Source: an uncultured Gammaproteobacteria bacterium (GTDB lineage Bacteria > Patescibacteriota > Patescibacteriia > Magasanikbacterales > UBA922). From it: 64,000 nucleotides of DNA. A model generated the notes under the pieces. That model saw only the letters and a list, made by a program, of their open reading frames with translations, was not told the origin of the DNA and ran no database searches. The position numbers and the translations under genes were made by a program. Where the stretch lies: positions 704,595-768,594 of the forward strand of contig CAZQXB010000001.1 of NCBI GenBank assembly GCA_964597575.1, given 5' to 3'. Positions 11,083 through 43,442 of the stretch are shown one piece after another. Every line of letters starts with the position of its first letter. Within the stretch, counting starts at the first letter, position 1.

Positions 11083-11103
11083 CATTCAATATACCTCAAA
11101 AAC

Positions 11104-14570: not shown

Positions 14571-15125
14571 ATGAACGACAAAGAGGCACAAATCGAGACC
14601 ACGCTTTTCCTTGTGAGGGCGCTCCCCATGCATGGAGGAGTCCAAACGGAGGCTTACATACAGACCCGTGACAGCGCGGCTGCAGAGCGAGTGAGCGAAT
14701 ATATTGCCCACAAGCTAGGCATGGTGTCATCCACGACCGTCGGGGCTATCTACAGCTCCCAGACCCCGGGTGCGACTCTCACGGCTCTCCGCATCAAGAA
14801 GGGTCTTCTCAGCTACCGCAAGGTGAGCAGCTTCCTCCGCGTCGAGACCGTGATCCGCCAGGAAAACAGCACGGCGGACTCGAGCTCCGCGCATGGCTAC
14901 GCGATCCGGATCACCGAGCTCGTCCGGGAGAACCTCGGACAGCACATCGTCGTGGTCCTGGCCTGCGACGCGGATACTTTCGCGCAGACGGTGCGGAAGT
15001 TCTCGGGGGGTGGGGGTTCGATCCCGGAGTTGGTGCCTGGCACCGTCGTTACGCTCACGCTCCACGGAGCTGGACCTGAGTGGACGAAGACGGTCATGGA
15101 CTGCCACAGCCCCGCCAAGAGCTAG
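14571..15125 (+). CDS. hypothetical protein encoded in high-GC island 1
   Basis: 184 aa ORF with a good SD (GAGGAAG, 8 nt upstream). Local GC is about 60% against a 45% background, with GC3-biased codons. No recognised domain. Confidence 0.5.
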   Translation: MNDKEAQIETTLFLVRALPMHGGVQTEAYIQTRDSAAAERVSEYIAHKLGMVSSTTVGAIYSSQTPGATLTALRIKKGLLSYRKVSSFLRVETVIRQENSTADSSSAHGYAIRITELVRENLGQHIVVVLACDADTFAQTVRKFSGGGGSIPELVPGTVVTLTLHGAGPEWTKTVMDCHSPAKS

Positions 15126-15292: not shown

Positions 15293-15363
15293 TCGGGGAT
15301 CGTCTAACGGTAGGACTTCAGGTTCTGGTCCTGAATATCGGGGTTCGAATCCCTGTCCCCGAA
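15293..15363 (+). tRNA. tRNA-Gln (anticodon CTG)
   Basis: Hand-folded cloverleaf. Acceptor TCGGGGA/TCCCCGA with U1-A72, a Gln identity element. D stem GTCT/GGAC. Anticodon stem TCAGG/CCTGA with loop TTCTGGT (anticodon CTG). T arm CGGGG-TTCGAAT-CCCTG. Discriminator A, no encoded CCA. Confidence 0.8.
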
Positions 15364-15370
15364 CAAAAAA

Positions 15371-17139: not shown

Positions 17140-17526
17140 ATGCACAGACGCGTGTTGGGAGTATACGGAATCGTGGTGGTGGCAATGGTAGGAGTTGGCT
17201 GCACCTATGACGGACACTATGTGGCGCCACCACAAGTGACTGCCACGTGTGCAGAAATGACAGACTCGATCTGCGAAAAGATCGACTCCTGTCTCAACCC
17301 GTTCGAAAAGCTCGTTCTCTCTGAGGATGAGTGCCTCCGAAAGGCAGAACCCATTGTCTGCACGCTTAGTTCGTCAGTGGCCTATGCTGGCGAATGCGTC
17401 CGGCAAGCAATCATCGTTCAGTGTGAACCCCTGCGGGGATTTCTCCTCGACGATGAAGCAGTCGCAACTATGACATCAACCTGCACGAGTTTCTTCACGA
17501 AAGTGAAAGCGGACGTGAAGAAATGA
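17140..17526 (+). CDS. small secreted or lipoprotein-like Cys-rich protein
   Basis: N-terminal hydrophobic segment ending in VGVGC, then 8 further Cys in 100 aa. Slightly elevated GC. Confidence 0.45.
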   Translation: MHRRVLGVYGIVVVAMVGVGCTYDGHYVAPPQVTATCAEMTDSICEKIDSCLNPFEKLVLSEDECLRKAEPIVCTLSSSVAYAGECVRQAIIVQCEPLRGFLLDDEAVATMTSTCTSFFTKVKADVKK

Positions 17527-17620: not shown

Positions 17621-18610
17621 TTACGAATGATTTTCACCTACAACGAGTTGCAAATACTCTTCTAAAAGAAGATCGAGTTCAGAAATAAGTGATACACGCA
17701 TCAATTTTCCACGCAATTCTTTCATACCAGGAATAACTTCGCCCATTTTGGTTGCTTTAAAATACCACGACAAATGTTTGCGGAAAGTCGTCATCCCCTT
17801 TTCTCCATACTGAAGCACATGCAACTGCGCATGTTCGCGGATAACTCGTACCCGTTCATCTGGAGTAACAACAAATGTAGGATCAAGCGCTTCTTTAAAA
17901 AACCAAGGATTACCAAGAGCACCGCGCGCGATAAGAACTCCATCAGCTTTGGTAATATCGAGCGCTTCCTGTACCTGCTTCGCTTCATGAATATCGCCAT
18001 TTGCTAAAAGCGGTACCGGAGAAATTTTTTTTGCTTCAGCAATACGTGCCCAATCACTCTTTCCGCTATAGCTCTGTTCTTTGGTTCGACCGTGCACGGT
18101 AATAAGCTCGGCTCCGGCTTCTGCAACGACAGGAATAAATTTTTTGAAATCATCAGGATCTTTCCAGCCTAAACGAATTTTTATAGAAAGCGGTGTCGTG
18201 CCAATCGCTTGTTTTATTTCACGAATAATAGCCGCAGCACGTTCGGGTTCTTTCATAAGGGCGCACCCATTGAAGTTGCTGGTAATTTTATACACCGGGC
18301 AGCCCATGTTAATATCGATTCCCTCAGGCTTCGCATGCTCCATCACAATCGCAGCAGCGCGCGCCATGGTCAACGGATCGGAACCAAAAATCTGTTGTAC
18401 AATGGGTCGTTCAGCAGGCACAAAATCAGTCATGCCGAGGGTTTTTGCATTATTCCGAACGAGAGCCTCTGAGGAGACCATTTCGCGAAATACCACATCT
18501 GCTCCACCAATATTTCTGACCACTTGGCAAAAGGCAGAATCAGTCATATCTGCCATGGGTGACAGAGCTAAAATACGACCATTATTTTTGAGAATATCTT
18601 GGATCCACAT
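17621..18610 (-). CDS. dusB: tRNA-dihydrouridine synthase
   Basis: Dus TIM-barrel motifs: LSPMADMTDSAFCQV, IDINMGCP, catalytic-Cys region, and KIRLGW..D at the FMN site. Confidence 0.85.
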   Translation of the reverse strand: MWIQDILKNNGRILALSPMADMTDSAFCQVVRNIGGADVVFREMVSSEALVRNNAKTLGMTDFVPAERPIVQQIFGSDPLTMARAAAIVMEHAKPEGIDINMGCPVYKITSNFNGCALMKEPERAAAIIREIKQAIGTTPLSIKIRLGWKDPDDFKKFIPVVAEAGAELITVHGRTKEQSYSGKSDWARIAEAKKISPVPLLANGDIHEAKQVQEALDITKADGVLIARGALGNPWFFKEALDPTFVVTPDERVRVIREHAQLHVLQYGEKGMTTFRKHLSWYFKATKMGEVIPGMKELRGKLMRVSLISELDLLLEEYLQLVVGENHS

Positions 18611-18854
18611 ACGAGTATTACTTTGGTGAAAAAGAAGTATATCATATTTGGCTAAAATATCAAGAGAATCCTATTTTTATCTTGATAAAAATGATACCTT
18701 GAGGGTCGTAGACCCAAGCTCTCCACCCGACGATCACCGAGGCGCTCCACCCCCACCCCTACGGTGCACTAAGGAGGCGCAAGCGTAACAAGACCCCAGA
18801 AACAGAAGACTGCTCACCAGGGGTCGACAATTCTTTTCTTTTCAAGAACTTGAG

Positions 18855-18896
18855 GACAGAAAAATAAAGATCTCCCGTTATGCGAGAGATCTTTAT
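18855..18896 (-). terminator. intrinsic terminator of the 478-aa paralog gene (minus strand)
   Basis: Perfect 11-bp stem ATAAAGATCTC/GAGATCTTTAT with an 11-nt loop. On the minus strand it is followed by TTTTTCTGTCC. It begins 17 nt after the stop at 18913. Confidence 0.5.
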
Positions 18897-18912
18897 CTAT
18901 TTGATTGTCCTC

Positions 18913-20349
18913 TTAGGAATCGAGTATATGGCCGGAATCGGTCATGTACCGTCGCGGAGCAGGCTTGTCTGGTGCTGGGGTTGGCTCTACAGACTTCTTC
19001 TCTTCAACCATGACACCCTGCGGCAAAACCATACCCAGACCCTCAACTGGCAAGTCTGACGGCGGCTCGGTTTTCTTCGCCCCAGCTTTTTGTAAGAGTG
19101 GTACCCGCACGTGAGACATTGGAAAGTGCCAAATTGTGGCCAGCTCTTCAATATTCAACACAAATGATTTCAAAATTTTTCCCATGGCCCGTTCTTTATA
19201 GGCCTGCATAATTTTTCGCTTGCGTTCATTTTTTATTCTATCAGCAAACAAATATTTGGTACTGGTGAGGTATTTTGGTAAAAGTGCATTCGAGGTGGGG
19301 TTGTTAAACTGATTGATCGCCCCGATAAGCGAATTCACCCCACGCGCCGGGTTAAATATCTCTTTCCGAGCCACATAAATCATGCGAATTTTTGTTTTGT
19401 ACCCAATTTTACTAATTTTATCTTCCATGGCTTCGACCAATTTTTTCTGCCCTGGAGTAAGGTATTGCATTTTATTTTGATCACTTTTTCCCTCTTTTGC
19501 GGCCCCCTCTCCCCCACCTAAAAACTCACTTCCAACCAACTGTGGCCCAAAAACGTTTGCAGCCTGGATTGGAATATCTAAGGCTTTTCCTAAAAAACCC
19601 TGTTTTTTAGGCTTTTTCTTTTCTCCAATAAGCTTATTAATCTCCTCAATAGAATCCTTTTTCCACTCTTTATCAGGGGTCGGCTCAATCACCATCTGGT
19701 ACCACATCTGTTCGCCCGGACCAATGCGACTGAAACTTTCCAAGAATGTACCCATCGGATCTTTCACTGGCGCATCTTTATCAACCATGTGCTCGAAATC
19801 ACGGTATACCCGAAGCGGGTAGGCATCAGGCGCCACCAACTTAAACTCAGCCCCCCACATATTATATGTTTTGTCAGGGTAGTGCTCGGGAATTCCCTTG
19901 GTGTAATCTTCAATTTCCGTAATTTCAGCTTCAGGGTATTGTGCATAAAGTGCCGCCTCCATAACGTCACGGTACTGTTCTAAAACCCGCACGACAAACT
20001 GGATATACCCCTCGATACTTACAATTTCAAAACTGAACGAAAAAGGTTCAAACCCTCGCCGATACATGAGGGCGATAGCATTCCCTTCGTAAATAGAAAA
20101 AATATGAGCGAACATTTGCTCAACCGCTTTTGGTGTCTGAACATTGAGCTGCGGAACATCAATCGCAAGGTGTACCCAACGCCACTTATCAACATATTTT
20201 TTATTCTTGTAGAAAGCCAATAAAAAAAGACCGCCTTTCAAAAGTAAGGCCGCAACAAGAATCCAAGCCCCGGCAGTAAAAAGTCGCGTCAAAGCGACAA
20301 CGGGCGGAGCCGTAACCTCACGCATGACAAGAAAGAGAAACTCTTCCAT
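18913..20349 (-). CDS. membrane-anchored paralog of the N-terminal domain of the 855-aa ATPase, lacking the ATPase
   Basis: 478 aa with TM helix AGAWILVAALLLKGGLFLLAFY. It aligns along its whole length with residues about 30-420 of ORF 7864-10431, including the conserved blocks AQYPEAEITEIEDY and IWHFPM...EPPSDLPVEG. It ends where the ATPase module begins in the long protein. Confidence 0.65.
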   Translation of the reverse strand: MEEFLFLVMREVTAPPVVALTRLFTAGAWILVAALLLKGGLFLLAFYKNKKYVDKWRWVHLAIDVPQLNVQTPKAVEQMFAHIFSIYEGNAIALMYRRGFEPFSFSFEIVSIEGYIQFVVRVLEQYRDVMEAALYAQYPEAEITEIEDYTKGIPEHYPDKTYNMWGAEFKLVAPDAYPLRVYRDFEHMVDKDAPVKDPMGTFLESFSRIGPGEQMWYQMVIEPTPDKEWKKDSIEEINKLIGEKKKPKKQGFLGKALDIPIQAANVFGPQLVGSEFLGGGEGAAKEGKSDQNKMQYLTPGQKKLVEAMEDKISKIGYKTKIRMIYVARKEIFNPARGVNSLIGAINQFNNPTSNALLPKYLTSTKYLFADRIKNERKRKIMQAYKERAMGKILKSFVLNIEELATIWHFPMSHVRVPLLQKAGAKKTEPPSDLPVEGLGMVLPQGVMVEEKKSVEPTPAPDKPAPRRYMTDSGHILDS

Positions 20350-23598: not shown

Positions 23599-23936
23599 AA
23601 ATTCAAGAAAGTGGGCCTATTGTACGCGAATTTTGGCCTTTTCGTCAACTGCGGTTTATGCACACGATATTGACATATGGCAACGATCATGATATTCCTT
23701 ATTTTAACGATGAAACCGAAAAGCACTCACCCACCCACCGGAAAGCGAAAAAGAAAGGAGCATCGAAAAAAAACTCGACGTTACTCGAAGAATGGCCGGA
23801 AGCGCATGCGGCGATGGCTCGCTGTCATCTGCAGTGAAAGCCGTTGGTGGCGCCAAGAGGCTATCGAGACTACCAGTGGGCGTCGTCGACACGATCCGGA
23901 ATAGAGTCCGGAACGCGCTGGCCGGTATTCGTAAGA

Positions 23937-24008
23937 AATCACCCGCCAACTCGTTATCTCCCTTACCCTAGCGGTAGGAGGGAAAACGAGCGGGTGATTT
24001 TTTATTTC
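23937..24008 (+). terminator. plus-oriented intrinsic terminator closing a GC-rich structured intergenic segment
   Basis: 10-bp outer stem AATCACCCGC/GCGGGTGATT encloses a nested hairpin TCCCTTACC..GGTAGGAGGGA, followed by TTTTTATTTC. Both flanking CDS (secD, secA) are on the minus strand. Confidence 0.45.
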
Positions 24009-24016
24009 ACCCCCGG

Positions 24017-26779
24017 TTACGCCCCATGACACTTCTTAAACTTCTTTCCCGAGCCGCATGGGCACATATCATTTCGCCCCACTTTTTGTTGTGCGTCCGC
24101 TGCTCCTGCAACTGGCGGGGGTGCTGCTGTTTCTTTGGTTGCACCGCTTAGCGTTAGTGTGTCGGTCGCCATAATCGTCGGCGCAACTTGAATACCAATA
24201 TTCACCTTGAAGAATCCGTAGACGACTTCTTTCTGAATGTTTGCTAAAAGTTCATTAAACATGCGGAAAGTTTCTTTCTTATACTCAACGAGCGGATCAC
24301 GTTGACCGTAGCCACGAAGGCCGATACCGGCACGCAAATGATCAATGGAAACGAGATGATCAACCCACAAGGTATCGATCGCACGAATAAGTACTCCTGA
24401 TTCAATATCGCGCATCGTTATGTGTGCTGCTTCAGGCGAACTTGAGGCACCCTGAATTGCTTGCTCCATCTGCGTATATGTTTTTACCGCTAACCCAAAT
24501 AAAAATTCAACAATTTTTTCACGCACTTCCACGTCGCCAAGCTTTCCATCTTCACGCTTTGTAAATGCGAGAAGTGTTGCTTTTTCTTCATCACTGACCG
24601 GAAACATGGTCCGAGCGGTTTCATACACTTCCTGCATGTTCCACTCCCCGCTTTCGGTGTTGGTATGGAACCCAACCACGAGTTCAATTTCTTTTTGCAT
24701 CATGTCGAGCACCATGCCTTTACTTGGTCGCGTATCAGACACTTCTTTCACATCAAGCAGCTCTAACACCTGACGACGTTTCTTATAAATCACATCGCGG
24801 TGTTTGTTCAACACATCATCGTATTCAAGCAAATGCTTACGCGTATCAAAGTGATGCGATTCTACCTTCTTCTGCGCTGATGCCAAAATTTTTCCAAGAA
24901 TCGGCTGTTCAATCGGTAAATCTTCCGGAACATTCAAACGGGTCATCACATTTTTCATTCTGTCTCCTGCAAAAATGCGCATGAGTTCATCTTCTGTTGA
25001 AATGAAAAATTGTGTTTCCCCTGGATCCCCTTGGCGGGCACTGCGTCCACGGAGCTGATTATCGATACGACGAGACTCATGACGCTCCGTACCGAGAACA
25101 AACAACCCACCGGCACTGAGAACCTTCTCATGCTCCTCTTTATTCATGGGGGTACCACCGAGTTTAATATCTACCCCGCGCCCAGCCATGTTCGTCGCCA
25201 AAGTCACGGCTCCCGGGCGACCTGCCTGCGCAATAATCTCCCCCTCACGCTCATGATTCTTCGCATTTAAAAGTTCATGCTGAATTCCTTGGGCTTGCAA
25301 ATACATGCTGAGTTGCTCATTTTTTTCAACCGAAGCTGTACCAATAAGCACTGGCTGACCCTTCGCGCGAGTTTCTTTTACTTTTGCCACAATGGCCTTG
25401 AACTTCGCCGCTTCTGTTTTATAAATACGATCGGTTTGGTCGATTCGACGATCCGGCTTGTTGGTTGGAATAACCACGACTTCCACATTATAAATTTTTC
25501 CAAGCTCTTCAGCTTCCGTAGCCGCTGTACCTGTCATACCAGAAAGTTTCTTGTACATGCGGAACAAGTTCTGGAACGTAATCGTCGCAAGTGTCTGGCT
25601 TTCTTTTTGAATTTTTACTCCTTCTTTCGCTTCAATGGCTTGATGCAAACCTTCGCTATAACGACGACCTGGCATTTTGCGGCCGGTAAATTCGTCGATG
25701 ATAACCACTTCACCCTTATCGACGACGTATTCTTTATCGCGCTTAAAAAGAACCTCGGCCTTGAGCGCCTGTTCAATGTGGTGGACGAGGCGAATACCGC
25801 CTTCAGCGTAAATATTTTCTACCCCAAGCCAACCTTCAAATTTATGAATGCCTTCTTCCGTTAAAGAAACGCTGCGCAACTTTTCATCAACATTATAATC
25901 GGTTACCTTATCAAGCTTCCGCGCAAGATCTGCAAATTGATAATACTGTTCTGTGGCCTCCATTGAAGGAGCCGAAATAATAAGCGGGGTGCGGGCTTCA
26001 TCAATTAAAATGGAATCCACTTCGTCGACAATGGCATAATGCATTTCGTTCCCCGGGCGCATCACCATGTCGGAAACGCGCTGCACCATGTTGTCGCGCA
26101 AATAATCGAAGCCATATTCGTTGTTCGTGCCGTAAGTAATGTCACAACGATACGCTTCTTGACGAGTCGCTGGGCGTAAAAATTCGTATTCTACTTTGAA
26201 ACTCCCTAAATCGTCGCGTTCTTTATCGGCTTCACTTCCCTCAGCAACTTTCGCTGCTTCTTCCGGCGGTTTCGCAAAACCTGCATCGTACACATACGTA
26301 ACACGCTGGTTTTGAATCACCCCAACACTAAGCCCAAGGAATGCATAAATCTGCCCCATCCAAACTGCATCACGGCGTGCCAAATAATCGTTCACCGTTA
26401 CCACATGCACGCCCTTTCCCTCTAACGCATTTACATAGGTCGGAAGAGTTGCGGTCAGCGTTTTTCCTTCACCGGTTCTCATTTCTGCAATCTGCCCTTT
26501 GTGGAGCACTAAGCCACCGATAAGCTGAACATCGTAATGCCGCATCCCAGCCACACGTTTCGCCGCTTCTCGGACGGTAGCAAACGCTTCCGGTAAAATA
26601 GCATCGGTGGTTTCTCCGTTTTGAAGTCGCGCTTTAAATTCAGCGGTTTTCGCTTTGAGTGCTTCATCAGAAAGAGCAGAATAGCTCGATTCAAGCTCGT
26701 TTATTTTTTTAACAACAGGATCAAGTGTTTTCAGTACTTTTGCATTCGGATCTCCAAGTAATTTCGTAAGAAAAGACAT
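24017..26779 (-). CDS. secA: preprotein translocase ATPase SecA
   Basis: DEAD-like motor motifs (MRTGEGKTL, DEVDSILIDEARTPLII), the preprotein cross-linking and helical scaffold domains, and a C-terminal Zn finger CPCGSGKKFKKCHG. The start was set at MSFLTKLLGD. Confidence 0.9.
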   Translation of the reverse strand: MSFLTKLLGDPNAKVLKTLDPVVKKINELESSYSALSDEALKAKTAEFKARLQNGETTDAILPEAFATVREAAKRVAGMRHYDVQLIGGLVLHKGQIAEMRTGEGKTLTATLPTYVNALEGKGVHVVTVNDYLARRDAVWMGQIYAFLGLSVGVIQNQRVTYVYDAGFAKPPEEAAKVAEGSEADKERDDLGSFKVEYEFLRPATRQEAYRCDITYGTNNEYGFDYLRDNMVQRVSDMVMRPGNEMHYAIVDEVDSILIDEARTPLIISAPSMEATEQYYQFADLARKLDKVTDYNVDEKLRSVSLTEEGIHKFEGWLGVENIYAEGGIRLVHHIEQALKAEVLFKRDKEYVVDKGEVVIIDEFTGRKMPGRRYSEGLHQAIEAKEGVKIQKESQTLATITFQNLFRMYKKLSGMTGTAATEAEELGKIYNVEVVVIPTNKPDRRIDQTDRIYKTEAAKFKAIVAKVKETRAKGQPVLIGTASVEKNEQLSMYLQAQGIQHELLNAKNHEREGEIIAQAGRPGAVTLATNMAGRGVDIKLGGTPMNKEEHEKVLSAGGLFVLGTERHESRRIDNQLRGRSARQGDPGETQFFISTEDELMRIFAGDRMKNVMTRLNVPEDLPIEQPILGKILASAQKKVESHHFDTRKHLLEYDDVLNKHRDVIYKKRRQVLELLDVKEVSDTRPSKGMVLDMMQKEIELVVGFHTNTESGEWNMQEVYETARTMFPVSDEEKATLLAFTKREDGKLGDVEVREKIVEFLFGLAVKTYTQMEQAIQGASSSPEAAHITMRDIESGVLIRAIDTLWVDHLVSIDHLRAGIGLRGYGQRDPLVEYKKETFRMFNELLANIQKEVVYGFFKVNIGIQVAPTIMATDTLTLSGATKETAAPPPVAGAADAQQKVGRNDMCPCGSGKKFKKCHGA

Positions 26780-26905
26780 ACAAGTGAATAGGGATGTAAC
26801 ACGTCGGAGTGTAGCACTTCCCCTCGCTATTGGCAACCCCAAAAAATGCAAAAGGACAGATGGGGATCTGTCCGGAGAAAAGAAAACGAGGGTTCTTTAA
26901 GAGCT

Positions 26906-27307
26906 CTAGCGCATGACTTCTGTTCTGAAGTGACCATGACACCGCCTGCCGTTCGTTCTAAGACCGAGGATATACTTCCCGGGCAGAATGGGCGGCAACT
27001 CAACCGCTGCCAAGTACTTCCGCCCCTCTGTGTCCGATACGTCGACCACTGTCTGCACTCCAAGAATGGCGAGGCGATGAAAGGTTCGACGCACTGGGCC
27101 TTGTGGAATGACGAACGAATCATGAACCACAAAGCAGATTGGGGCACTAACGACGAGCACAGGATGCCGTCGAGCCTGAGCTGGAACTGTAAACTCAATA
27201 CCTACGAAGCCGTCGCTCGCCTCAATATTCTGCATGAGTGCATATCGACGGACATAGATGCCTCCAACAAACAGACCGACCACGAGGAACACGTACATGG
27301 AAATCAC
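26906..27307 (-). CDS. hypothetical small membrane-anchored protein (high-GC island 2)
   Basis: 133 aa ORF with an N-terminal TM helix (YVFLVVGLFVGGIYV). GC is about 55%. Confidence 0.35.
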   Translation of the reverse strand: MISMYVFLVVGLFVGGIYVRRYALMQNIEASDGFVGIEFTVPAQARRHPVLVVSAPICFVVHDSFVIPQGPVRRTFHRLAILGVQTVVDVSDTEGRKYLAAVELPPILPGKYILGLRTNGRRCHGHFRTEVMR

Positions 27308-27323
27308 GGTGAACTTCCTTCCA

Positions 27324-27983
27324 TCACACCTTGAATGTGATGTTGATGCCGAACTCCGTGCGAAGCAACCTGCGCAGATCGTTCGCCGTCTTCTCGCGCG
27401 CGTCGAACTTGAGCGTCTTCATGCCACACGCTCTCGCCCCAACTAGGTTTTCATCTTTGTCATCGATGAAAAGAATTTTGCTCGGATCACAGTCGGCGCG
27501 TTCGATGGCCGTAAGATATATTTCTCGCTCTGGCTTCCGATGGCCAATTTCAAACGAGAGAATACGACGATCCCGGGGGATCAAACGCAGAAGCTGCGGG
27601 ATGCACTTCTTAGCCCACTCCCAGTGAGGGGCAGTGGTGTTGGAAATGATCCCAAGAAAAGGAACGGCTTTTGCCAAATCCCCGACTGCCGACTCAATAC
27701 CAATGACTGGAGTAAACACGTCCCCCCAGCACGCGATGATATCGGAGTTTGGAAAGTTCGGCGCACCGAGAATCCGCCGCACCTCGCAGGCAAACCGCGC
27801 TCCATCCATTCCCCGCTCGAATCCATCTTCGAGCTCGCCTCCGTAGAGGAGAGAAAAAACGGTTTTGGCAGAGTGTGGATCGTTAGTCTTCCTGGCAAAC
27901 TTCTCACACGCAATCATGTGATCGAAATAAACGAGCACACGACCCAAATCGAAATATACTGCCTCAATGTTAGAAATTTTCAT
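27324..27983 (-). CDS. HAD-superfamily hydrolase (subfamily IA-like)
   Basis: Motif I AVYFDLGRVLV near the N-terminus, motif II ISNTT, motif III K, and motif IV LFIDDKDENLVGARACGM. The start was set at MKISNIE. Confidence 0.6.
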   Translation of the reverse strand: MKISNIEAVYFDLGRVLVYFDHMIACEKFARKTNDPHSAKTVFSLLYGGELEDGFERGMDGARFACEVRRILGAPNFPNSDIIACWGDVFTPVIGIESAVGDLAKAVPFLGIISNTTAPHWEWAKKCIPQLLRLIPRDRRILSFEIGHRKPEREIYLTAIERADCDPSKILFIDDKDENLVGARACGMKTLKFDAREKTANDLRRLLRTEFGINITFKV

Positions 27984-28163
27984 GAACAATCCTCTCCTTG
28001 CCCAAGGTTGGGCGCCGCACCTGCCAAAAACGACAGATGACTTTTGAGAATACTTGAGTTGCACCAAAAAGTCAAGGCAAAACTTCTTCAATTATAAAGA
28101 GCGTAGAGGGTGATCTACGCTCGGGGAAGAACTCCCGGGAATGGAACGGTATCGGCGTGGGCG

Positions 28164-28763
28164 CTAGAGGGAGATGACCTCGGCGACGCTGCCGAAGGGT
28201 CCGATTCGGACGAACCGGATGTCCGCGACCTTCATGGTGTGGGGGTGGTCGGGGTACTCGCCCCTGAAACCACGCTCATCGTGGGCCAGGGTGAGGTGCG
28301 GGCGCCACTGCCCGCTGACCAGAGGATGTCCGTACTTTTGCACGTTTTCCTGCTGTTCAGGGGTCAACTCGAGCTTCTCCTCGGCCTGTCGCCCGGTCGA
28401 GATGGTCTGGTCACGAAAGTCCGCGATGGCGAGAGCCGCATGGTGCGCCCGGAAGAGGATCCTCGTCAACCTCTCGTTCCCCCTCCACATCACATCCCAG
28501 AAGAGGAACTTTTTCCCGAACTGAGCCAGTGGGCCGAGCGGGATCTCGGTGCCGGAGGCGAGCTCATGCCGACAGTCCTCGAGAATCTCGCGCGCCCGGG
28601 TAACGGACAGCCCTACCACGGACGTGTGGTACAGGGTCAGGTGGGGCAGAGGCGTCTGGAAGCGTGCCCGGTCCGCATATTGGGTGATGAGCCTCTCCAC
28701 CTCTGCCTGGGTGGCTGGGTCAGGGCGGACGACAAAGCCGTACGCTCCACTGTATGAGTTCAT
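28164..28763 (-). CDS. 2H phosphoesterase superfamily protein (LigT / 2'-5' RNA ligase-like)
   Basis: Two H-x-T-x motifs (PHLTLYH and PHLTLAH) spaced about 100 aa apart are the hallmark of the 2H family. About 63% GC with strong GC3 bias. Confidence 0.55.
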   Translation of the reverse strand: MNSYSGAYGFVVRPDPATQAEVERLITQYADRARFQTPLPHLTLYHTSVVGLSVTRAREILEDCRHELASGTEIPLGPLAQFGKKFLFWDVMWRGNERLTRILFRAHHAALAIADFRDQTISTGRQAEEKLELTPEQQENVQKYGHPLVSGQWRPHLTLAHDERGFRGEYPDHPHTMKVADIRFVRIGPFGSVAEVISL

Positions 28764-28890
28764 CTCGTGTCCTCTTTCTGCAAGCAGGATCGCTTGCGAT
28801 TTCTAATCTCTATATACCAAAAAAAAGCTTAAAAGTCAATAATTTAGCTCTCACCCTTCCACATATTCACAAGTCAAACCCTTCTTCCTC

Positions 28891-28919
28891 TTGACAAAAT
28901 ACTAATAAAATGATAAGAT
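28891..28919 (+). promoter_or_regulatory. sigma70-type promoter for gene 29002-29706
   Basis: TTGACA, a 17-nt spacer ending in TG (extended -10), then TAAGAT. The surrounding 140 bp is AT-rich inside a GC-rich island. SD GGGAGGG lies 10 nt before the ATG at 29002. Confidence 0.45.
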
Positions 28920-29001
28920 CGCCTGTCTGTGTACGTCTTTAACCTACATTAGGAAAAGATGCGATGCGCAGAAGGACAAGGCCCTAGGGAGGGCAACGAC
29001 A

Positions 29002-29706
29002 ATGAACAACAACCAGACCAACAAGACCGCCGTGCTGGTGCACGGCATGTTCCTCCAGGCCAAAGGCTGGGAGGAGAACGTCTGGGGCAACACCCAGACC
29101 GGCAAGCTCGGGCGCCTGCCCACGGCCGTGCTCATGTTCGAGAAGTACAGCGCGACCACCATGATCTTCGGCACCGGTGCCAGCATGGAGGGGGACGAGA
29201 AGGAGTCCCAGTTCACGTACCGGACGCTCATGGAGCGGTTCAACGACCTGCGCAACTTCAAGCAGTTCGAGGGCATCGACCTCGTGGCGCTGCGCGAGCG
29301 GATCTCGGCGGGCCGGGTGATCGACACCGAGACGCAGAACACCCTGCAGGAGGTGCAGGCCGCGGCGCGGGCCTGCAACGAGCGCGGGAACACCGACCTG
29401 ATCCAGGTCTCGTCCCCGAGCCACCTCCCCCGCTGCATCCGCGATGGGGTGAAGGCGCTCCAGGCGGCGGAGTTCGCCGGCAAGAAGCCGACGCTCCTCG
29501 CCACCGCGAGCGAGGTCTACTACAGCGGCGCGACCGACGACGACACGCTCATCGTCGAGTACCCCCACCGGGCCGACAGCCCGGCCGAGTACTACGCCCT
29601 GCACGCGGTGCTGAAGCGGCTCATGCCCGCGTTCTACCCCGCCAAGGTCACGGCCGAGGTGCGGAACCGCATCATCGCCGGCATCGACAAGGTCCTCCAG
29701 GGCTGA
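29002..29706 (+). CDS. hypothetical protein, possibly DUF218/YdcF-like (extreme high-GC gene)
   Basis: 234 aa. This is the only frame with normal amino-acid composition; the overlapping long frames are Arg/Gly/Pro-rich artefacts. GC3 is near 95%. There is weak resemblance to YdcF/DUF218 (VLVHGM..., MIFGTGAS, VSSPSHLPRC). Confidence 0.5.
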   Translation: MNNNQTNKTAVLVHGMFLQAKGWEENVWGNTQTGKLGRLPTAVLMFEKYSATTMIFGTGASMEGDEKESQFTYRTLMERFNDLRNFKQFEGIDLVALRERISAGRVIDTETQNTLQEVQAAARACNERGNTDLIQVSSPSHLPRCIRDGVKALQAAEFAGKKPTLLATASEVYYSGATDDDTLIVEYPHRADSPAEYYALHAVLKRLMPAFYPAKVTAEVRNRIIAGIDKVLQG

Positions 29707-29942
29707 TCGCACCTGCCCGCAACCTCTTCCCGTTCTCTACTATCGAGAGCGACGTGAGGTCCCACCTACCGGGCATTCGCCCACCGTCCCTCCATCGACC
29801 ACGTCGGTGCGAGGGACTCTTTTTTTACAAAAAGTATCCACCGAGGTGGATTTTTTGATATTGACAAATACGCGAAAATGTGGTATATTACCTTGCTTCT
29901 GTGATTGAAGATAACCTATTTAACCGTCCTAGGAGGGACATC

Positions 29943-30407
29943 ATGGAAGACGTAGCGTACCAACTTGTCGGCATCTTCACTGGGCTATTCAAGGAGCCGA
30001 TAATCTTGATCATCATCCTTGGGCCCGCACTTGTGATCGCGACCTACTACATCATCGAGGCGATGAGTGGGGAAGACCTCCCGACCAACCACATGATACC
30101 TCGTGTGGGAGGAAAGAAGGGGGCGGGCACGTCTGACGACAACGGGAATCCTGATCACGACCTGTATGCCTCCGACCGCCCCGGAGGGGGACCCGACCAC
30201 GTCGGTGCCATGATCGCCAGTGTCCATGCTGCTGAAGCCGCCGAACAGAGTGGCGATGGCGATGGAAACAACGAAGGCGGCGCGCTCATGCCGCTGTTCG
30301 ACATGTACAACGAGCGCAACGCAGATGGAACACGCGCCTTTGACCTCGACACCGACGGCGACGGCATCCCGAACGCGGTCGACGATCGGCCGAACGATCC
30401 GTTCTAG
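29943..30407 (+). CDS. small membrane-anchored protein with a C-terminal TSP3-like Ca-binding repeat
   Basis: Start set at MEDVAYQLVG. TM helix IILIIILGPALVIATYYII. C-terminal DLDTDGDGIPNAVDDRPNDPF. Confidence 0.4.
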   Translation: MEDVAYQLVGIFTGLFKEPIILIIILGPALVIATYYIIEAMSGEDLPTNHMIPRVGGKKGAGTSDDNGNPDHDLYASDRPGGGPDHVGAMIASVHAAEAAEQSGDGDGNNEGGALMPLFDMYNERNADGTRAFDLDTDGDGIPNAVDDRPNDPF

Positions 30408-30412
30408 AAAAA

Positions 30413-30455
30413 CCCCCGCATAACCACAGTGTTATGACGGGGGTGCATTTATTTT
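30413..30455. terminator. bidirectional intrinsic terminator
   Basis: Stem CCCCCGCATAAC/GTTATGACGGGGG (one mismatch) followed by TGCATTTATTTTAG. It sits between convergent genes ending at 30407 (+) and 30466 (-). Confidence 0.55.
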
Positions 30456-30465
30456 AGAAATCTTT

Positions 30466-30819
30466 TTATTCTTCTGGAATATATTCTTTGGTATCGCGAA
30501 TCGCTTCTTTATCTTTCGCACGCATCTTTTCTTTCATTTTTTCGAGTTCCAACTTTAACTGACCATGCACCATGTCAATCGCAGCATATAAGTCACCCGC
30601 ATCTTTTTCGACACGCACTAAATCATGATGTGGTACCTGCAGGTTAACCTCAGCATAAAAAATTTCCCCTTTGTGGTGATGCCCGCTTCGAAGCCCCACA
30701 TCAATGTCGGCCGAAATAATATGATCAAAAAACTTTTCAAGCGATTGTACTTTTTCTTCCGCGTATACCTTAATTGCCTCCGTAAGTTCCATGCCCGTAC
30801 CACGAATGGTCGTATTCAT
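30466..30819 (-). CDS. hpf: ribosome hibernation promoting factor / RaiA family
   Basis: MNTTIRGTGMELTEAIKVYAEEKV...HHHKGEIFYAEVNLQVPHHDLV is the YfiA/HPF fold signature. Start set at MNTTIRG. Confidence 0.8.
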   Translation of the reverse strand: MNTTIRGTGMELTEAIKVYAEEKVQSLEKFFDHIISADIDVGLRSGHHHKGEIFYAEVNLQVPHHDLVRVEKDAGDLYAAIDMVHGQLKLELEKMKEKMRAKDKEAIRDTKEYIPEE

Positions 30820-38945: not shown

Positions 38946-41900
38946 TTACTCTTTCTCTAAAGAAACATCTTCGGCAATAAACGAAGCACCTTCTGCTTTT
39001 GCCTTATCCGAGATGCTTGAAAGCTCTTTTGCCACATACCCTGTCCGTGTAAAATGGAGCGTGTACGTATTATTTCCCACCAAAAAGGCATACTGGCCTT
39101 TTTTATTTGTCACAAAAGTATCAACGAGCTTATTGTACTCAGACGCAAACAGACGGACGACGGTGCCAGGAAGTGCCTGTTTTGTTTCTCCATCAAATAC
39201 CTGACCCCAGTGTCGAGGTTTCTTTGGTACTAAAAATTTCGTAAAGAGGATATACGCAAAAAGCTGGAGAAAACCAAACAGAACAGCCACCCAAGTAAAG
39301 GTCACAAGCAAACTTGCAGCAAGGATAAAAAATCCAGACAATGCTACACCATGCTGAACCACACGAAGACGACGTTGCCTCAAAATTCTCTCCGGTGTTT
39401 TCTGCTCTACCCCAACAGGATCAAGGGCAATCGGGTAGCCTAAACCCACACTTCCATCCTCAACCACAATAAGTTCCCCATGATAGACGTCTGCAAACTG
39501 ACCATCATTCACTAAGTCTAGTGGAATAATTTTTGTCGGTTCAAAACCACTCTTTCCAACCTCAATGCGGTATTCCCCGGGTTCAGCTAAAAAGACATAC
39601 CGACCCTGCACATCAGTGACACGAGTTTGAACAATTTTATTGGTGGTATTGTTAATCAAGCGAACTACGGCCAAATCAATCGGTGCTTTCGACAAACTGT
39701 GGTACACCACGCCCCATTCTTTTTGTTTGGTACGCCCAAGAAGAAGAAAAGGCTGAAGAAAAACATAGTAGAACAGCGGCACGCCGGTTCCGGCAAAGGC
39801 CGGAGCTAAGGCAAGAACAGGAAGAACACCAACCGTTGGCACGACAATCGTTTTGGTGACTGCTTCTACCTCAGGATCCTCGGCCCAAGCGCGAGCACCA
39901 CTTAATAAATCAAGAAGAGCCTGACGTGCAGCTTCAAATGCACTGAGTTGCTCTTGAGAAGCATTCGCTTCTGTTCCCCCAACTTCATTACCACCTTCTC
40001 CGCCAGGCCCTGCAAGGCGTATCCGATACGTGATCGATGGATTAAGAACATTGTTCGTTACCGTAAACACTCCTGCATCGACTGCGTTTTTTCCTGATTC
40101 TTGAAGCGCAAGTCGATACGTACCATTTGGCACCATAAAGACATAACTTCCATCACTTGCGGTAGTTACGGGATTCATCTGTCCATACGCAGTTCCGTCC
40201 CAGAGCTCGGTCGTATCACCTCCACCAATTCCAGCAGTATAGAGCATAACTTGTATACCCGCTACTGGGGCCAAACGTTCTTCGTCATATACGATTCCGC
40301 GAGGTAAACTTTCAATAACCACTTGATGAACATCGGTTACGTCTCGATAATACGTAATAAGCTCTCCCGGATATTGTGCTGGCTCACCGAGTGGGATGTC
40401 GGCTTCATACGAACCAGAATCTAAATCAAAAGCCAAAGGATACGTCGATTCGTTGAACTTCAGTTCGATCAGATACACTCCCTGTTCAGCCAAGCCTTCT
40501 CCATTCACATTCACAGAAAGAGAATCCCCTGCCACACCCGCAATTCGAATAAGTTCAGTGTCTTTTGTAACTTGTACTGGCGCAACACCAACACTTCCCC
40601 CTGTCCGCTTTGTAGTAAGAGTAAAATCAACCACCGTTGAAGTTGCAGCTACAGGTTCTGTTGGAGCTGGAGCACATTGAGCACCTGTGCGACCACCGAT
40701 AATCTTTCCATCCCCTACCGCAAGGTGGGAATTTGGCCAAAGAAGAAAATTATTTTCTTCTACCCCATTTTTAAGTAAACGAAAGCGAATTTGGTGTTTC
40801 CACAGGGCCTCGAGGTAAAGCATTTCAATTTTCACCCTTTCCTCCACACACTCTTTGACTACCTCAACGACAACATCATTATAATCTTTATCAATATCAT
40901 TTGAATCTTCAAACAAAATACGTTGAATATCCGTTGCATAATCAACAACTCGCACATTTGGCCCTCCCATATGCCGTTCGGTTCCATCAGGGTTCACAAT
41001 ATACATGTCATACGACATGGTGTTGCAATCAAACGCACACATATTGCCCGAAACAGGAGTGAACACAGCCGGAGCAGTTGACGACACGCGCACGGCTTGT
41101 GGAGGCGGAGACGGTGGTCTTGCTGGAGGCACGACCGGTGGGCGTGCCGGAGGTGGTGATACAGGGTTTGGTGTCGCAGGCGGAGGCGTTACTGGAGGGT
41201 TTAGGGTAGGTTCTGGCACTGGCTCTGGTTGTACAGGAGGCGCCACTTGAGGCGGCGGCACTGGTGCGACCGAAGCAGCGCTTCCGCATCCGTTTACCGT
41301 ATCAAGCCGCACGTCAGCGGTAAGATGCGGACTCATCCTTCCTCGCCCATTCTGAAATTTTACATGAAGGGTGTATATTCCATCACTTGTCGAAGGCAGC
41401 TGCCACGAAACAACCTCTACCTCACCTTTCATAGAACGCCATACACCCACAAACGGATAGGTATTTTCAAGCAAGTAAGAAACAGCTTCTCCAGATCGGA
41501 GAGTTACGTTCACAAAAGGTGAAGTTACACAGGCGGGCGCTTCAATAGTACCCCCAATTTCACCACCGAAATAGATAAATGAACCACCCGGGGATGGAGA
41601 AGGAGTCGGGCTTGGACTCGGCGAAGGTGAAGGACTCGGTGACGGAGCAGGTGGTGGGGGCGGCGGAGGTGGGGGTGGGGTTGGAGGAATATCACTAATG
41701 AGTGCAGAAGCCGACGCTGTATTATTTATTGACGTGATATCAGCCCCACTATCGAAAATGGTTGCTGTATTTTCCAATGATCCAGTAAAACTCCCCAGTG
41801 CGGTAACAGCAAACACTACCCCACCACTTCCACTTACAGCAACAGTACCAATGGTTGTTGTACACGTTGTTCCCGCTACCGCCTCATTCGAACAGCTCCA

Positions 41901-43442
41901 TGTTCCGGTACTTGAAGCACTTGAAAATACACCACCCACCGGTACAGTGGTTGAAATATATACACCACTTGCAGAAGCGTCACCAATATTGGAGTAATCA
42001 AAAGAAAAAAGTACGGTAGAACTTGAATATGTTGACGTTGGACTTTCGGTATTGGTCAAAGCAAGGTCAGGTGCTGTCGCACTTGGGGTACCAGTAAACC
42101 CAAAATCCATGGAGGTGAACACCATTCTACTGTTTGACGGATAGGGAACAATACTTGTAACGAGAGAATTCAAATGAGCTCCCGTACCCGTCGCAGTCCC
42201 ATCAGAATCGAGAAAATTATCAAAAGAGGCGCTCTGATCATCCCCAACATTAGGAGTAGTGGTCGACAATCCCGCCAAAGCACTCTGATCAAGAGGAATA
42301 ACTAGATAATAGCCACTATGCTGTTGCAGCGTCGTCGATACGTTCAAACTAGCATTAGTACCGAATGTGTATATCCCATCGGCAGTAGTAGTCGCCTGCC
42401 CTAAAAGGGATGTTAATTCGCCTGCATATAAACGCACCACAACCCCACCAATACCCGGCTCTCCAGCATCTTGAAACCCATCACTATCAAGGTCATTCCA
42501 AATACGATCACCAATTTGGGGAATATGTGCCCCGGAATAGGCCATAAACGCAAAATTAATACCAGAGGCTGGACTTTCGACGAACGTAACATTTGGGTAT
42601 GAACTCCCTACAGCATATCCAAGATAACGTGTAGATGATGAAAAGTTAAACGTTTGCAAGCGCACATCAGTTCCATCTGCCACATCAATACCATATTGCC
42701 CAGAACTATTTGTTCTACACGCATCAATAAGTGTGTTTGAAGAGTCATACACTTCGACGACAACACCCTGCGCACCCGTCTCCCCACCATCAAAAACACC
42801 GTCAGCGTCAGCATCAGTAAAAGCTGTACCAGTAATATCTGTCCCGGTACACTCAGGTGGCGGAGTAAAAGGAATATTATTATTATCAATTCGAGGAGAA
42901 GAAGATGCGTTCAAATCAAAAGTAAGATAATAAGGATTCGCTGCACACCCCCCAGGAATTACACCCCCTGGCGGTGAGGCACCGATATTAATTGTACTTT
43001 GAGAGGTACTAGCAAACGGCCCCGCTTGCGGTAAACACGTGGTACTGAGTGTATACCCCGGAGGAGGAGTTATATTCATCGTATACACACCCGGAACCAT
43101 GGGTGTACCCGTAGCAAGCCAGGTATAGAATCCATGATTGGGTAGATAGCGATCGTCATAAATTAGGGTTCCAAAAAGTCCTGTATTATAGGCAAAATAC
43201 GTGGCACCGCCAGGCGGAGCCGAAATAGTGAGGTAGCCACCGTACAGAGGATAATGACCATTGGATTCGTCGTAAAAATATCCACTCGGGTCTATCGGGT
43301 CTTTTTCCTTATTCAAAAGATATGACTCTTCATCTTTCTGGTGAGGAATAAGAGGTATTGCAGCAAAGACGAAAATAAAAAACAAAGCAAAAAATAAAAA
43401 CTTCTGCTTCCCTCCCTGTGTTAAATGCATCAAAAATTTCAC
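38946..43442 (-). CDS. giant (1498 aa) cell-surface adhesin-like protein
   Basis: N-terminal signal anchor. Repeated Cna-B/SdrD-B/CarboxypepD_reg-like beta-sandwich signatures (NSSGQYGIDVADGT, DGIYTFGT, DGSYVFMVPNGTYRL, QGRYVFLAEPGEYRI, KGQYAFLVGNNTYTL). DUF11-like region. Long PPPPPPPPPPAPSPSPSPSPSPSP and PxPP linkers. Hydrophobic helices near the C-terminus. Confidence 0.7.
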   Translation of the reverse strand: MKFLMHLTQGGKQKFLFFALFFIFVFAAIPLIPHQKDEESYLLNKEKDPIDPSGYFYDESNGHYPLYGGYLTISAPPGGATYFAYNTGLFGTLIYDDRYLPNHGFYTWLATGTPMVPGVYTMNITPPPGYTLSTTCLPQAGPFASTSQSTINIGASPPGGVIPGGCAANPYYLTFDLNASSSPRIDNNNIPFTPPPECTGTDITGTAFTDADADGVFDGGETGAQGVVVEVYDSSNTLIDACRTNSSGQYGIDVADGTDVRLQTFNFSSSTRYLGYAVGSSYPNVTFVESPASGINFAFMAYSGAHIPQIGDRIWNDLDSDGFQDAGEPGIGGVVVRLYAGELTSLLGQATTTADGIYTFGTNASLNVSTTLQQHSGYYLVIPLDQSALAGLSTTTPNVGDDQSASFDNFLDSDGTATGTGAHLNSLVTSIVPYPSNSRMVFTSMDFGFTGTPSATAPDLALTNTESPTSTYSSSTVLFSFDYSNIGDASASGVYISTTVPVGGVFSSASSTGTWSCSNEAVAGTTCTTTIGTVAVSGSGGVVFAVTALGSFTGSLENTATIFDSGADITSINNTASASALISDIPPTPPPPPPPPPPAPSPSPSPSPSPSPTPSPSPGGSFIYFGGEIGGTIEAPACVTSPFVNVTLRSGEAVSYLLENTYPFVGVWRSMKGEVEVVSWQLPSTSDGIYTLHVKFQNGRGRMSPHLTADVRLDTVNGCGSAASVAPVPPPQVAPPVQPEPVPEPTLNPPVTPPPATPNPVSPPPARPPVVPPARPPSPPPQAVRVSSTAPAVFTPVSGNMCAFDCNTMSYDMYIVNPDGTERHMGGPNVRVVDYATDIQRILFEDSNDIDKDYNDVVVEVVKECVEERVKIEMLYLEALWKHQIRFRLLKNGVEENNFLLWPNSHLAVGDGKIIGGRTGAQCAPAPTEPVAATSTVVDFTLTTKRTGGSVGVAPVQVTKDTELIRIAGVAGDSLSVNVNGEGLAEQGVYLIELKFNESTYPLAFDLDSGSYEADIPLGEPAQYPGELITYYRDVTDVHQVVIESLPRGIVYDEERLAPVAGIQVMLYTAGIGGGDTTELWDGTAYGQMNPVTTASDGSYVFMVPNGTYRLALQESGKNAVDAGVFTVTNNVLNPSITYRIRLAGPGGEGGNEVGGTEANASQEQLSAFEAARQALLDLLSGARAWAEDPEVEAVTKTIVVPTVGVLPVLALAPAFAGTGVPLFYYVFLQPFLLLGRTKQKEWGVVYHSLSKAPIDLAVVRLINNTTNKIVQTRVTDVQGRYVFLAEPGEYRIEVGKSGFEPTKIIPLDLVNDGQFADVYHGELIVVEDGSVGLGYPIALDPVGVEQKTPERILRQRRLRVVQHGVALSGFFILAASLLVTFTWVAVLFGFLQLFAYILFTKFLVPKKPRHWGQVFDGETKQALPGTVVRLFASEYNKLVDTFVTNKKGQYAFLVGNNTYTLHFTRTGYVAKELSSISDKAKAEGASFIAEDVSLEKE
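41590..41700 (-). repeat. coding low-complexity repeat (Pro/Ser-Pro) inside the adhesin gene
   Basis: (GGN)n on the plus strand encodes PPTPPPPPPPPPPAPSPSPSPSPSPSPTPSPSP. Likely length-polymorphic. Confidence 0.5.

Follow-up and report, generated by a model that had tools for sequence, protein, structure and literature searches.

Genomic islets acquired from elsewhere are usually AT-richer than the host genome, and base composition is widely used both as a flag of recent transfer and as a clock for it; the amelioration model of horizontally acquired genes is said to go back to Lawrence and Ochman in 1997. Here we describe a locus for which this logic would give the wrong answer. In the 64,000-nt stretch of contig CAZQXB010000001.1 analyzed here (the window, to whose positions all coordinates refer), the core genes hpf and secA of an ABY1/Magasanikbacteria-like Patescibacterium are separated by an islet, taken as 26837–30480, which carries a 2H phosphoesterase gene, a YihX-like HAD phosphatase gene, a DUF218/YdcF-like gene, and two genes for small proteins. 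The locus resembles acquired genomic islets in being a short accessory block of deviant composition, patchily distributed among relatives and located between core genes; it is GC-richer than its surroundings. With a probability of roughly 60%, we consider it an old, clade-specific accessory islet in an hpf–secA gain-and-loss hotspot, whose excess of GC at third codon positions (GC3) is kept by a gene-specific force.

The islet has a GC content of 0.566, compared with 0.463 and 0.450 in its flanks, 0.461 in the window overall, and a mean of 0.455 (standard deviation 0.015, maximum 0.506) across 265 other segments of the same 3644-bp length. Its five genes show GC3 values from 0.57 to 0.98, corresponding to z scores of 4.8 to 18 against the 29 background genes of the window (GC3 0.417, standard deviation 0.032). 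Encoded on the minus strand are the hypothetical small protein ORF133 (26906–27307; GC3 0.567), the HAD phosphatase (27324–27983; 0.595), and the 2H phosphoesterase (28164–28763; 0.815), and on the plus strand the 234-aa DUF218-like protein (29002–29706; 0.983), with only 3 of 234 codons ending in A or T, and a 154-aa membrane protein with a TSP3-like motif (29943–30407; 0.723). The GC excess is mainly confined to the third codon positions of the islet open reading frames (ORFs). The spacers among the genes are AT-rich (GC 0.34–0.41), including 0.393 at 29836–29942 and 0.340 in the AT-rich core at 28790–28930, and both secA and hpf are at background composition right up to the islet border; the 3′ untranslated region (UTR) of the DUF218-like gene, at 0.58, is GC-rich as well. 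GC at the first and second codon positions of the DUF218-like gene (0.609 and 0.421) is near background (0.564 and 0.385), and the ratio of Gly, Ala, Arg, and Pro to Phe, Tyr, Met, Ile, Asn, and Lys residues (GARP/FYMINK) in its product is 1.12, within the background range of 0.79–1.21 and thus of a mid-GC type. In proteins long resident in genomes above 70% GC, this ratio lies well above 2. The codon pattern of the gene is purely compositional (AAG, GAG, GGC/GGG, CGC/CGG) and not tRNA-adapted.

Much of what the preliminary description of this DNA had reported is borne out by these measurements. The high-GC segment is real, the promoters and terminators named in it are all present, and its borders fall within about 20 bp of the points at which DNA homology between the window and the relative L001 ends (26836) and restarts (30481). 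The GC3 of the DUF218-like gene, given as about 95%, is even more extreme, and the promoter assigned to an AT-rich internal segment, TTGACA-17-TAAGAT with TG, is found at 28891–28919. As for the cargo, the 2H and HAD proteins pass the Pfam gathering scores, the DUF218 protein falls below the threshold, and the TSP3 repeat was seen by eye only. No integrase or transposase had been noticed, and Pfam, NCBIfam, and phage-family profile searches revealed no such domains among the islet proteins. There is no tRNA gene within 11 kb of the islet, and no att-like or direct repeats were found flanking its borders. In terms of the classical features of integrative islands, the locus shows deviant composition and patchy distribution and lacks mobility genes, a tRNA, and repeats.

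The islet was compared with four short metagenomic contigs (1.1–2.3 kb) and one 13-kb contig (L086); L081 originates from Logan (SRR19238494), and L082 and L085 from ENA (ERZ27309396 and ERZ28655916, respectively). The nearest relatives according to secA are uncultured Patescibacteria, namely L001 (83% identity), Magasanikbacteria-like metagenome-assembled genomes (MAGs; 64%), and Uhrbacteria/Falkowbacteria (51–54%). The sister lineage formed by L001 and the near-identical L086 has just 657 bp from hpf to secA and lacks the 2H, HAD, and DUF218-like genes. These 657 bp contain a single small, GC-rich gene for a membrane protein, which matches 29943–30407 of the window in position and orientation and has a homologous promoter. 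Its 136-aa product ends in TDGTDGDGRPD, and a DGDG motif near the end is also found in the 154-aa protein of the window; BLASTP detected no similarity between the two proteins. Because position, orientation, and promoter are shared, the small membrane gene slot beside hpf is ancestral. In L082/L085, the order is a divergent gene (GC3 0.95), an AT-rich spacer, the 2H gene (0.73), the HAD gene (0.75), and secA (0.41–0.48), while L081 comprises the start of the DUF218-like gene, the spacer, the 2H gene (0.77), and the start of the HAD gene. The 2H–HAD pair is thus located directly upstream of secA in both contigs that reach secA (L082/L085), and the adjacency of the two genes is kept in all three lineages that carry both (window, L081, and L082/L085). 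The 2H orthologues, 73% (L081) and 59% (L082) identical to the window protein, were the sole matches among 5.8 billion clusters; the HAD orthologue P0088 is 61% identical and adjoins both 2H and secA. The divergent gene of L082 (3–236, minus strand), situated behind a homologous divergent promoter, is not the DUF218-like gene; its 78-aa fragment has no Pfam match. The slot behind this promoter is variable and seems to take different GC3-extreme genes. The more distant relatives L002 and L003 showed no synteny upstream of secA. A metagenome scan with the 2H alignment returned no matches, and one with the conserved secA-promoter 19-mer returned only an L001-like contig and two chance matches.

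The regulatory DNA is shared along with the genes. The divergent promoters of the 2H gene (TTGACT-17-TATATA preceded by TG, read from the sequence; 28811–28839, minus strand) and the DUF218-like gene (28891–28919, plus strand), as well as the 5′UTR hairpin of the 2H gene (GCAAGC-loop-GCTTGC, directly before the ribosome-binding site; 28779–28798, minus strand), are common to the window, L081, and L082. The −35 box, the spacing, and the TGnTATAxA of the 2H promoter are kept in both relatives, as is the −35 box of the DUF218 promoter, and the hairpin has a conserved stem and a variable loop. The window, L082, and L085 have in common a terminator, GGACAGAT..ATCTGTCC, and the secA promoter that comes after it. 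In the window, the intrinsic terminator GGACAGATCCCCATCTGTCC with its T-run (26854–26873, minus strand) ends the 2H–HAD–ORF133 transcription unit, is homologous to the one after HAD in L082/L085, and is missing from L001; the adjoining secA promoter (TTGCCA-17-TACACT with TG; 26808–26836, minus strand) forms the left islet border, and every relative has it conserved. Between the window and L081, the 2H–HAD spacer is 87% identical and the DUF218 leader 91%, the adjacent promoter spacer 68%, and the adjacent coding DNA 74–77%. The DUF218-like protein of L081 begins with MNDKKNEK (ATG AAC GAC AAG AAG AAC GAG AAG), residues that differ from the window and are all encoded by G/C-ending codons. That the islet is common to these relatives and old is, in our view, very probable.

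Synonymous (dS) and nonsynonymous (dN) divergence was estimated by the Nei–Gojobori method, with secA represented by its first 241 codons. For the 2H gene, dS was 0.70 between the window and L081 and 2.7 between the window and L082; for the HAD gene, it was 2.7 between the window and L082. The corresponding secA values were 2.1 (window vs. L085), 3.8 (window vs. L001), and 1.7 (L085 vs. L001, with 95% protein identity). Over the full-length 2H and HAD genes, dN/dS was 0.12–0.25, and both are therefore functional genes under purifying selection. The unconstrained promoter spacer, 68% identical between the window and L081, gives a Jukes–Cantor distance of 0.41. Taken together, dS and spacer divergence imply that synonymous turnover since the common islet has been substantial with respect to L081 and complete with respect to L082/L085. 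The GC3 of the 2H gene is nevertheless 0.82, 0.77, and 0.73 in the window, L081, and L082, respectively, and that of the HAD gene 0.60 in the window and 0.75 in L082. A two-state decay model with its equilibrium at the background value of 0.417 predicts a 2H GC3 of 0.49–0.59 after one substitution per site per lineage, against the observed 0.73–0.82. Starting from a GC3 of 1.0, the DUF218-like gene should have fallen to 0.70–0.87 since the L081 split, and the probability of finding three or fewer A/T-ending codons in it under neutral decay since that split is at most 4e-11. Read as a neutral clock, this gene would have an age of only about 0.01 substitutions per site, which conflicts with the presence of a DUF218-like gene behind the same leader in L081.

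The direction of change points the same way. When synonymous third-position changes in the 2H gene were polarized with L082 as the outgroup, GC>AT and AT>GC changes numbered 5 and 5 in the window lineage and 4 and 5 in L081 (9 and 10 in total). Background rates predict about 85% GC>AT changes, compared with the 9 of 19 observed (P about 2e-4), and the test is conservative because the bias of a GC-rich outgroup would inflate the GC>AT count. From these balanced changes, it follows that the 2H gene is at its own equilibrium near a GC3 of 0.8, with secA (0.43) lying within 1.5 kb of it. We regard active maintenance of the islet GC3 as likely, with rather less assurance than the age of the islet. 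In the reading we prefer, the islet core would be a 2H gene followed by a YihX-like HAD gene, with an opposite, divergently promoted slot that now holds the DUF218/YdcF-like gene and a small membrane/TSP3-like gene adjoining hpf, each islet gene apparently being served by a separate promoter of near-consensus sigma70 type, a leader, and a terminator. This arrangement would predate the split of the window, L081, and L082/L085 lineages, and the absence of the 2H, HAD, and DUF218-like genes from L001/L086 would probably represent a loss. Its GC3 would stand at a compositional equilibrium, pointing to a directional, gene-specific force such as synonymous or mRNA selection, or biased repair or conversion.

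Several points weigh against this reading. The comparative evidence is consistent but thin, consisting of the five contigs listed above; the polarized changes are few (19) with a saturated outgroup, and the DUF218-like gene of L081 is known from its leader and eight codons. Vertical descent is inferred from common regulatory DNA and without whole genomes, and the lack of three genes in L001/L086, together with the swapped slot gene of L082, indicates that ORFs at this locus are exchangeable, leaving room for repeated imports. The 2H protein, with a GARP/FYMINK ratio of 1.69, leans somewhat towards GC-type residues, as expected of a GC-rich origin, and members of the 2H family outside the clade are not linked to HAD genes, their contigs having GC contents of 0.42–0.61. 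Moreover, we know of no established mechanism by which individual genes of a mid-GC genome could keep so extreme a GC3 over the long term, nor of any that could maintain a value near 98% against a genomic GC content of 46%.

Among the alternatives, the one that survives best, although we assign it only a small share of the probability, is that the ORFs have been replaced time and again by alleles from a GC-rich pool, supplied by a host or by a mobile element that has escaped sampling, through recombination limited to coding sequence, in which the native promoters and leaders stay in place. It would account for composition borders at ORF edges, for the 2H–HAD spacer and DUF218 leader being more conserved than the adjacent coding DNA, for a different gene of GC3 0.95 behind the homologous promoter in L082, and for gain and loss at the locus; Patescibacteria are also reported to exchange genes often, mostly among themselves (PMC12455944). 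The proposal is weakened because searches of public collections, including the sources of the relatives' contigs, returned no copy of the 2H, HAD, or DUF218-like gene in a GC-rich context; the close relatives amount to only three short contigs, and L082/L085 adjoin a mid-GC secA. In addition, the amino acid composition of the DUF218-like protein is not of a GC-rich type, the unconstrained promoter spacer is as diverged as the ORFs, so that the latter are not unusually diverged, and many precise ORF-limited recombination events would be needed. With regard to the forces that might act instead, genes that are typically well expressed (hpf, thioredoxin, IF-2, and secA) have a GC3 of 0.36–0.43 in the window. 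Ordinary translational selection is made unlikely by these values together with the purely G/C-ending codon pattern, and hypermutation of ORFs relative to non-coding DNA was rejected in view of the equal divergence of the promoter spacer. The remaining possibilities are selection on mRNA or codon choice, an AT>GC bias that is linked to transcription or repair and acts on these units alone, and the ORF-limited replacement from an unsampled GC-rich pool described above.

GC-biased gene conversion (gBGC) at an hpf–secA recombination hotspot, raising GC locally, appears unlikely. According to Lassalle et al. (2015; PMC4450053), recombining genes in many bacteria have a higher GC3, mainly through non-optimal codons, and two features of the islet agree with such a process: its codon pattern is compositional (all G/C-ending) and not tRNA-adapted, and gene content differs between L001 and L085 despite secA N-terminal regions (241 aa) that are 95% identical. 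However, gBGC should lift the spacers and flanking arms as well, and the AT-rich spacers and background core neighbors argue against any regional process, whether biased gene conversion or local mutational bias. Neighboring islet genes also differ strongly in GC3 (0.98, 0.82, and 0.60), and an effect of 0.98 versus 0.42 seems, in our judgment, far beyond bacterial gBGC.

The preliminary description had favored the view that this strain recently acquired the islet from a donor of high GC and actinobacterial type, possibly a host, the composition of that donor being still undecayed. This scenario, which we now find slightly less credible still, is supported by the GC3 of 0.98, which, if neutral, would correspond to about 1% synonymous divergence since import, by the sister lineage without the three genes, by the best DUF218 homologues lying outside Patescibacteria, and by the GC-rich 3′UTR of the DUF218-like gene. 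Against it, the same genes and regulatory DNA, with GC3 raised alike, occur in lineages at a dS of 0.7 to above 2, including the secA junction in L082/L085; L081 has the same leader followed by a diverged start with only G/C-ending codons, and the synonymous changes of the 2H gene are balanced, not decaying. Specificity of the island to the strain, a point that the description had proposed to check, holds insofar as L001/L086 lack the 2H, HAD, and DUF218-like genes, and fails for 2H and HAD, found in L081 and L082/L085, and for the membrane/TSP3-like slot, which is occupied in L001. The description had also named best matches in close relatives of the same GC as grounds for abandoning the idea, and the best matches of the 2H and HAD proteins (73%, 59%, and 61%) are precisely such relatives with the same raised GC3; the relatives thus already refute the scenario for the most part.

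Searches for homologues of the DUF218-like, 2H, and HAD proteins, including an exhaustive HMMER search for 2H over 1.84 billion representatives, did not reveal a close donor either. No homologue more than 41% identical was found outside the clade among 5.8 billion clusters and the 1.84 billion representatives, the next-best matches being 39% for 2H, 35% or less for HAD, and 41% for the DUF218-like protein. Labelled next-best homologues belong to Planctomycetota, Gemmatimonadota, Calditrichaeota, and marine eukaryotes, with a dinoflagellate as the top eukaryotic match, and none of the named homologues of the three proteins carries an actinobacterial label. The DUF218-like protein is 39–41% identical to proteins of a Planctomycetota MAG, groundwater MAGs, and marine eukaryotes (a dinoflagellate and MMETSP transcripts), forms an isolated long branch in a neighbor-joining tree of DUF218 matches, and has the mid-GC residue composition described above. 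The sampled homologues have a GC3 of 0.53–0.73, and the 2H family is small (132 representative clusters). A eukaryotic (algal or dinoflagellate) donor, considered because of the Yihiella and MMETSP matches, was rejected because the representative transcript has a GC3 of only 0.73 at 41% identity. A defense or phage origin was likewise rejected, with no PADLOC matches and a generic HAD family as the sole PHROG match. A foreign origin before the clade diversified is likely, and nothing in the sequences compared here points to Actinobacteria or a host as the source.

Finally, an assembly or binning artifact that merged GC-rich reads of a different organism into the contig was raised only for the sharp composition change and is of negligible probability, with nothing found in its favor, given that the mosaic of GC-rich ORFs and AT-rich promoters recurs in three further data sets, that L082/L085 join a mid-GC secA, and that homologous regulatory DNA extends across the junctions.

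The islet illustrates how composition can mislead: judged by its most extreme gene, import would lie only about 1% of divergence back, but the islet would predate splits at a dS of 0.7 to above 2. This bears on the calling of "host-derived" genes in epibiotic ultra-small bacteria. If the maintenance of GC3 is confirmed, the locus would offer a tractable natural case of off-equilibrium synonymous sites, comprising two to five genes with known promoters in several lineages.

Other small GC3-rich genes were observed in the clade. An orphan gene at 14571–15125 (GC3 0.79, no family match), near tRNA-Gln (15293–15364), is built like the islet genes, with a TTGACA-17-TGaTACTTC promoter, a UTR hairpin cgttgaaattcaacg, a Shine–Dalgarno sequence, and its own terminator. 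A Cys-rich, lipoprotein-like gene of 128 aa at 17140–17526 has a GC3 of 0.58, and its 60% identical L086 orthologue (10702–11088) one of 0.70; secA synonymous divergence between the two lineages is saturated, yet GC3 is raised in both. L086 further contains an extra 188-aa gene (8845–9411; GC3 0.70) between two core genes that in the window are separated only by a 300-bp spacer (18610–18913), which, as far as the sequence tells, is another gain or loss of a GC3-rich gene. None was found in 22 kb each of L002 and L003, and the phenomenon seems to belong to the genus-level clade and its lineage-specific, fast-evolving genes. A broader claim, namely that small lineage-specific genes with their own promoters are kept at a GC3 of 0.6–0.98 beyond synonymous saturation in this clade, with the rest of the genome at 0.42, falls a little short of even odds in our estimation. 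If true, synonymous sites of particular bacterial genes would be subject to a directional force, contrary to the expected convergence of foreign genes on the composition of the genome that hosts them. Such a force could be selection, favoring either codons that end in G or C or mRNA rich in GC (for instance through codon-biased translation that depends on stress or on a host, or through avoidance of nucleases), or else an AT>GC bias tied to transcription or repair. Two other compositional features of the window are the 420 bp between secA and the next gene (23600–24050; GC 0.49–0.53), in which no tRNA, Rfam match, or convincing ORF was detected, and a 1498-aa ORF at 38946–43442 with a GC2 (GC at second codon positions) of 0.48 and a GC-rich kilobase at 41001–42000 (0.523), which is probably a low-complexity surface protein.

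The remaining elements of the islet complete its transcriptional organization. The spacer between 2H and HAD contains a terminator-like hairpin (28099–28122) and a promoter-like TTGACT-17-TATTCT (28047–28075), together spanning 28047–28122 on the minus strand. ORF133, whose coding status is inferred, is preceded by a Shine–Dalgarno-like GGAAGGAAG, has no family match in Pfam or NCBIfam, and is present in the window lineage only; L082/L085 have no counterpart between HAD and secA, nor does any other relative. On the plus strand, the conserved leader of about 82 nt ahead of the DUF218-like gene (28920–29001) is predicted to fold into a long hairpin and a small hairpin holding the Shine–Dalgarno sequence GGGAGGG. 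Rfam gave no match for the islet leaders; this one, for which the two sequences give no covariation, may be a regulatory RNA. Two tandem terminator hairpins (29786–29826 and 29836–29851; 29786–29851 on the plus strand) follow the DUF218-like gene, and the small membrane protein gene has its own promoter, TTGACA-17-TATATT with TG (29861–29889, plus strand), which is better than that at 28891–28919. A bidirectional terminator shared with the convergent hpf (30408–30456), again read from the sequence, marks the right islet border. An exact 15-nt direct repeat, CGACCACGTCGGTGC, occurs at 29796–29810, in the terminator hairpin downstream of the DUF218-like gene, and at 30194–30208, inside the 154-aa gene; by our rough estimate, about 0.01 such repeats would be expected by chance in 4.3 kb. 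By sequence, ORF133 and the 154-aa protein are small and membrane-anchored, each with a membrane helix at the N terminus; the latter also has a linker rich in G, A, and D and, at the C terminus, DTDGDGIPNAVDDRPNDP. The TSP3-like motif DTDGDGIPNAVDDRPNDP is present in a single copy, and Pfam gave no match to it at E <= 0.1.

When considering the encoded proteins, the 2H phosphoesterase carries two HxT motifs (H41-L-T-L and H156-L-T-L), with H41 invariant and H156 and T158 at least 90% conserved among 60 family members, and scores 32.7 bits against PF13563 (cut-off 27). Its AlphaFold model (mean predicted local distance difference test 94.4) has a bilobed alpha+beta fold of the LigT/ThpR type, and its top Foldseek matches are all 2H enzymes (Deinococcus cyclic phosphodiesterase (CPDase), TT0787, and E. 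coli LigT). Assignment to TIGR03223 (DUF1045) is not supported (26.1 bits against a cut-off of 248.95, residues 106–160 only), and no phn genes are found nearby. The HAD protein, an exact copy of which is P0001 in a public collection that also contains the secA and murB products of the window as exact entries, has all four motifs intact (I, FDLGRV; II, SNTT; III, RKPE; IV, FIDDKDEN) when aligned to YihX and 4DCC, and belongs to subfamily IA variant 3 according to TIGR01509 (46.4 bits, cut-off 29.4) and PF13419 (27.9 bits, cut-off 23.8), scoring far below the YihX equivalog NF006991 (40.1 bits, cut-off 295). From the fold and motifs, 2′,3′-cyclic phosphodiesterase chemistry is expected for the 2H enzyme, which may open a cyclic phosphodiester, either a 2′,3′-cyclic nucleoside monophosphate (2′,3′-cNMP) or RNA 2′,3′-cyclic phosphate (RNA>p), or a sugar 1,2-cyclic phosphate such as ADP-ribose cyclic phosphate (Appr>p), to a monoester; the HAD enzyme might then remove the phosphate and yield a salvageable nucleoside or sugar. 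A sugar substrate of the Appr>p type is considered because of the YihX-like preference for anomeric phosphates. This predicted two-step dephosphorylation is tentative, having in our estimate about one chance in three of being correct. As a candidate salvage step, it would suit organisms with minimal biosynthesis that scavenge nucleotides. The protein encoded at 29002–29706 is DUF218-like and not a proven member, given that it scores 21.6 bits against PF02698 (cut-off 27.6, residues 95–147 only); most of its homologues at E below 1e-14 carry that domain, and YdcF (3CA8) is among its top fold matches, albeit a weak one (E 0.011, TM-score 0.36). It is predicted to be a Rossmann-like enzyme located in the cytosol, and His, Ser, Arg, Asp, and Glu residues are conserved in it.

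Compared with described systems, the 2H protein shares two HxT motifs and the same fold with LigT (5LDM), TT0787 (1IUH), and Deinococcus CPDase (5H7E) (Foldseek probability 1.0, TM-score 0.55–0.66). It differs from these LigT/ThpR types in its low identity (10–16%), in profile matches to solved 2H chains that are insignificant (E 0.1 or more), and in an extra helical insert (residues 117–145), and it represents a separate, small family. The HAD protein aligns over its full length with YihX, an alpha-D-glucose-1-phosphate phosphatase (2B0C, 8PNO), and with Bacteroides 4DCC, sharing the Gly at +2 of motif I (FDLGxV), SNT, RKPE, and the DD motif; it is similar in architecture only, is not a YihX orthologue, and is fixed here beside a 2H enzyme. 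The DUF218-like protein recalls the YdcF–ElyC–SanA group in its weak Pfam match and in what we read as a VSSPSHxxR signature, and differs in having no membrane anchor and in belonging to a separate subfamily that also has members in Planctomycetota, groundwater MAGs, and marine eukaryotes. As regards composition, the islet resembles the gBGC described by Lassalle et al. (2015; PMC4450053) in the gene-specific rise of GC3 through non-optimal G/C-ending codons, from which it is set apart by an effect that appears gene-sharp, with AT-rich spacers in between. Compared with acquired genomic islets, it has no integrase, tRNA, or repeats, is shared across saturated lineages with no decay, and deviates in composition only in its ORFs, its regulatory DNA being native-like and conserved.

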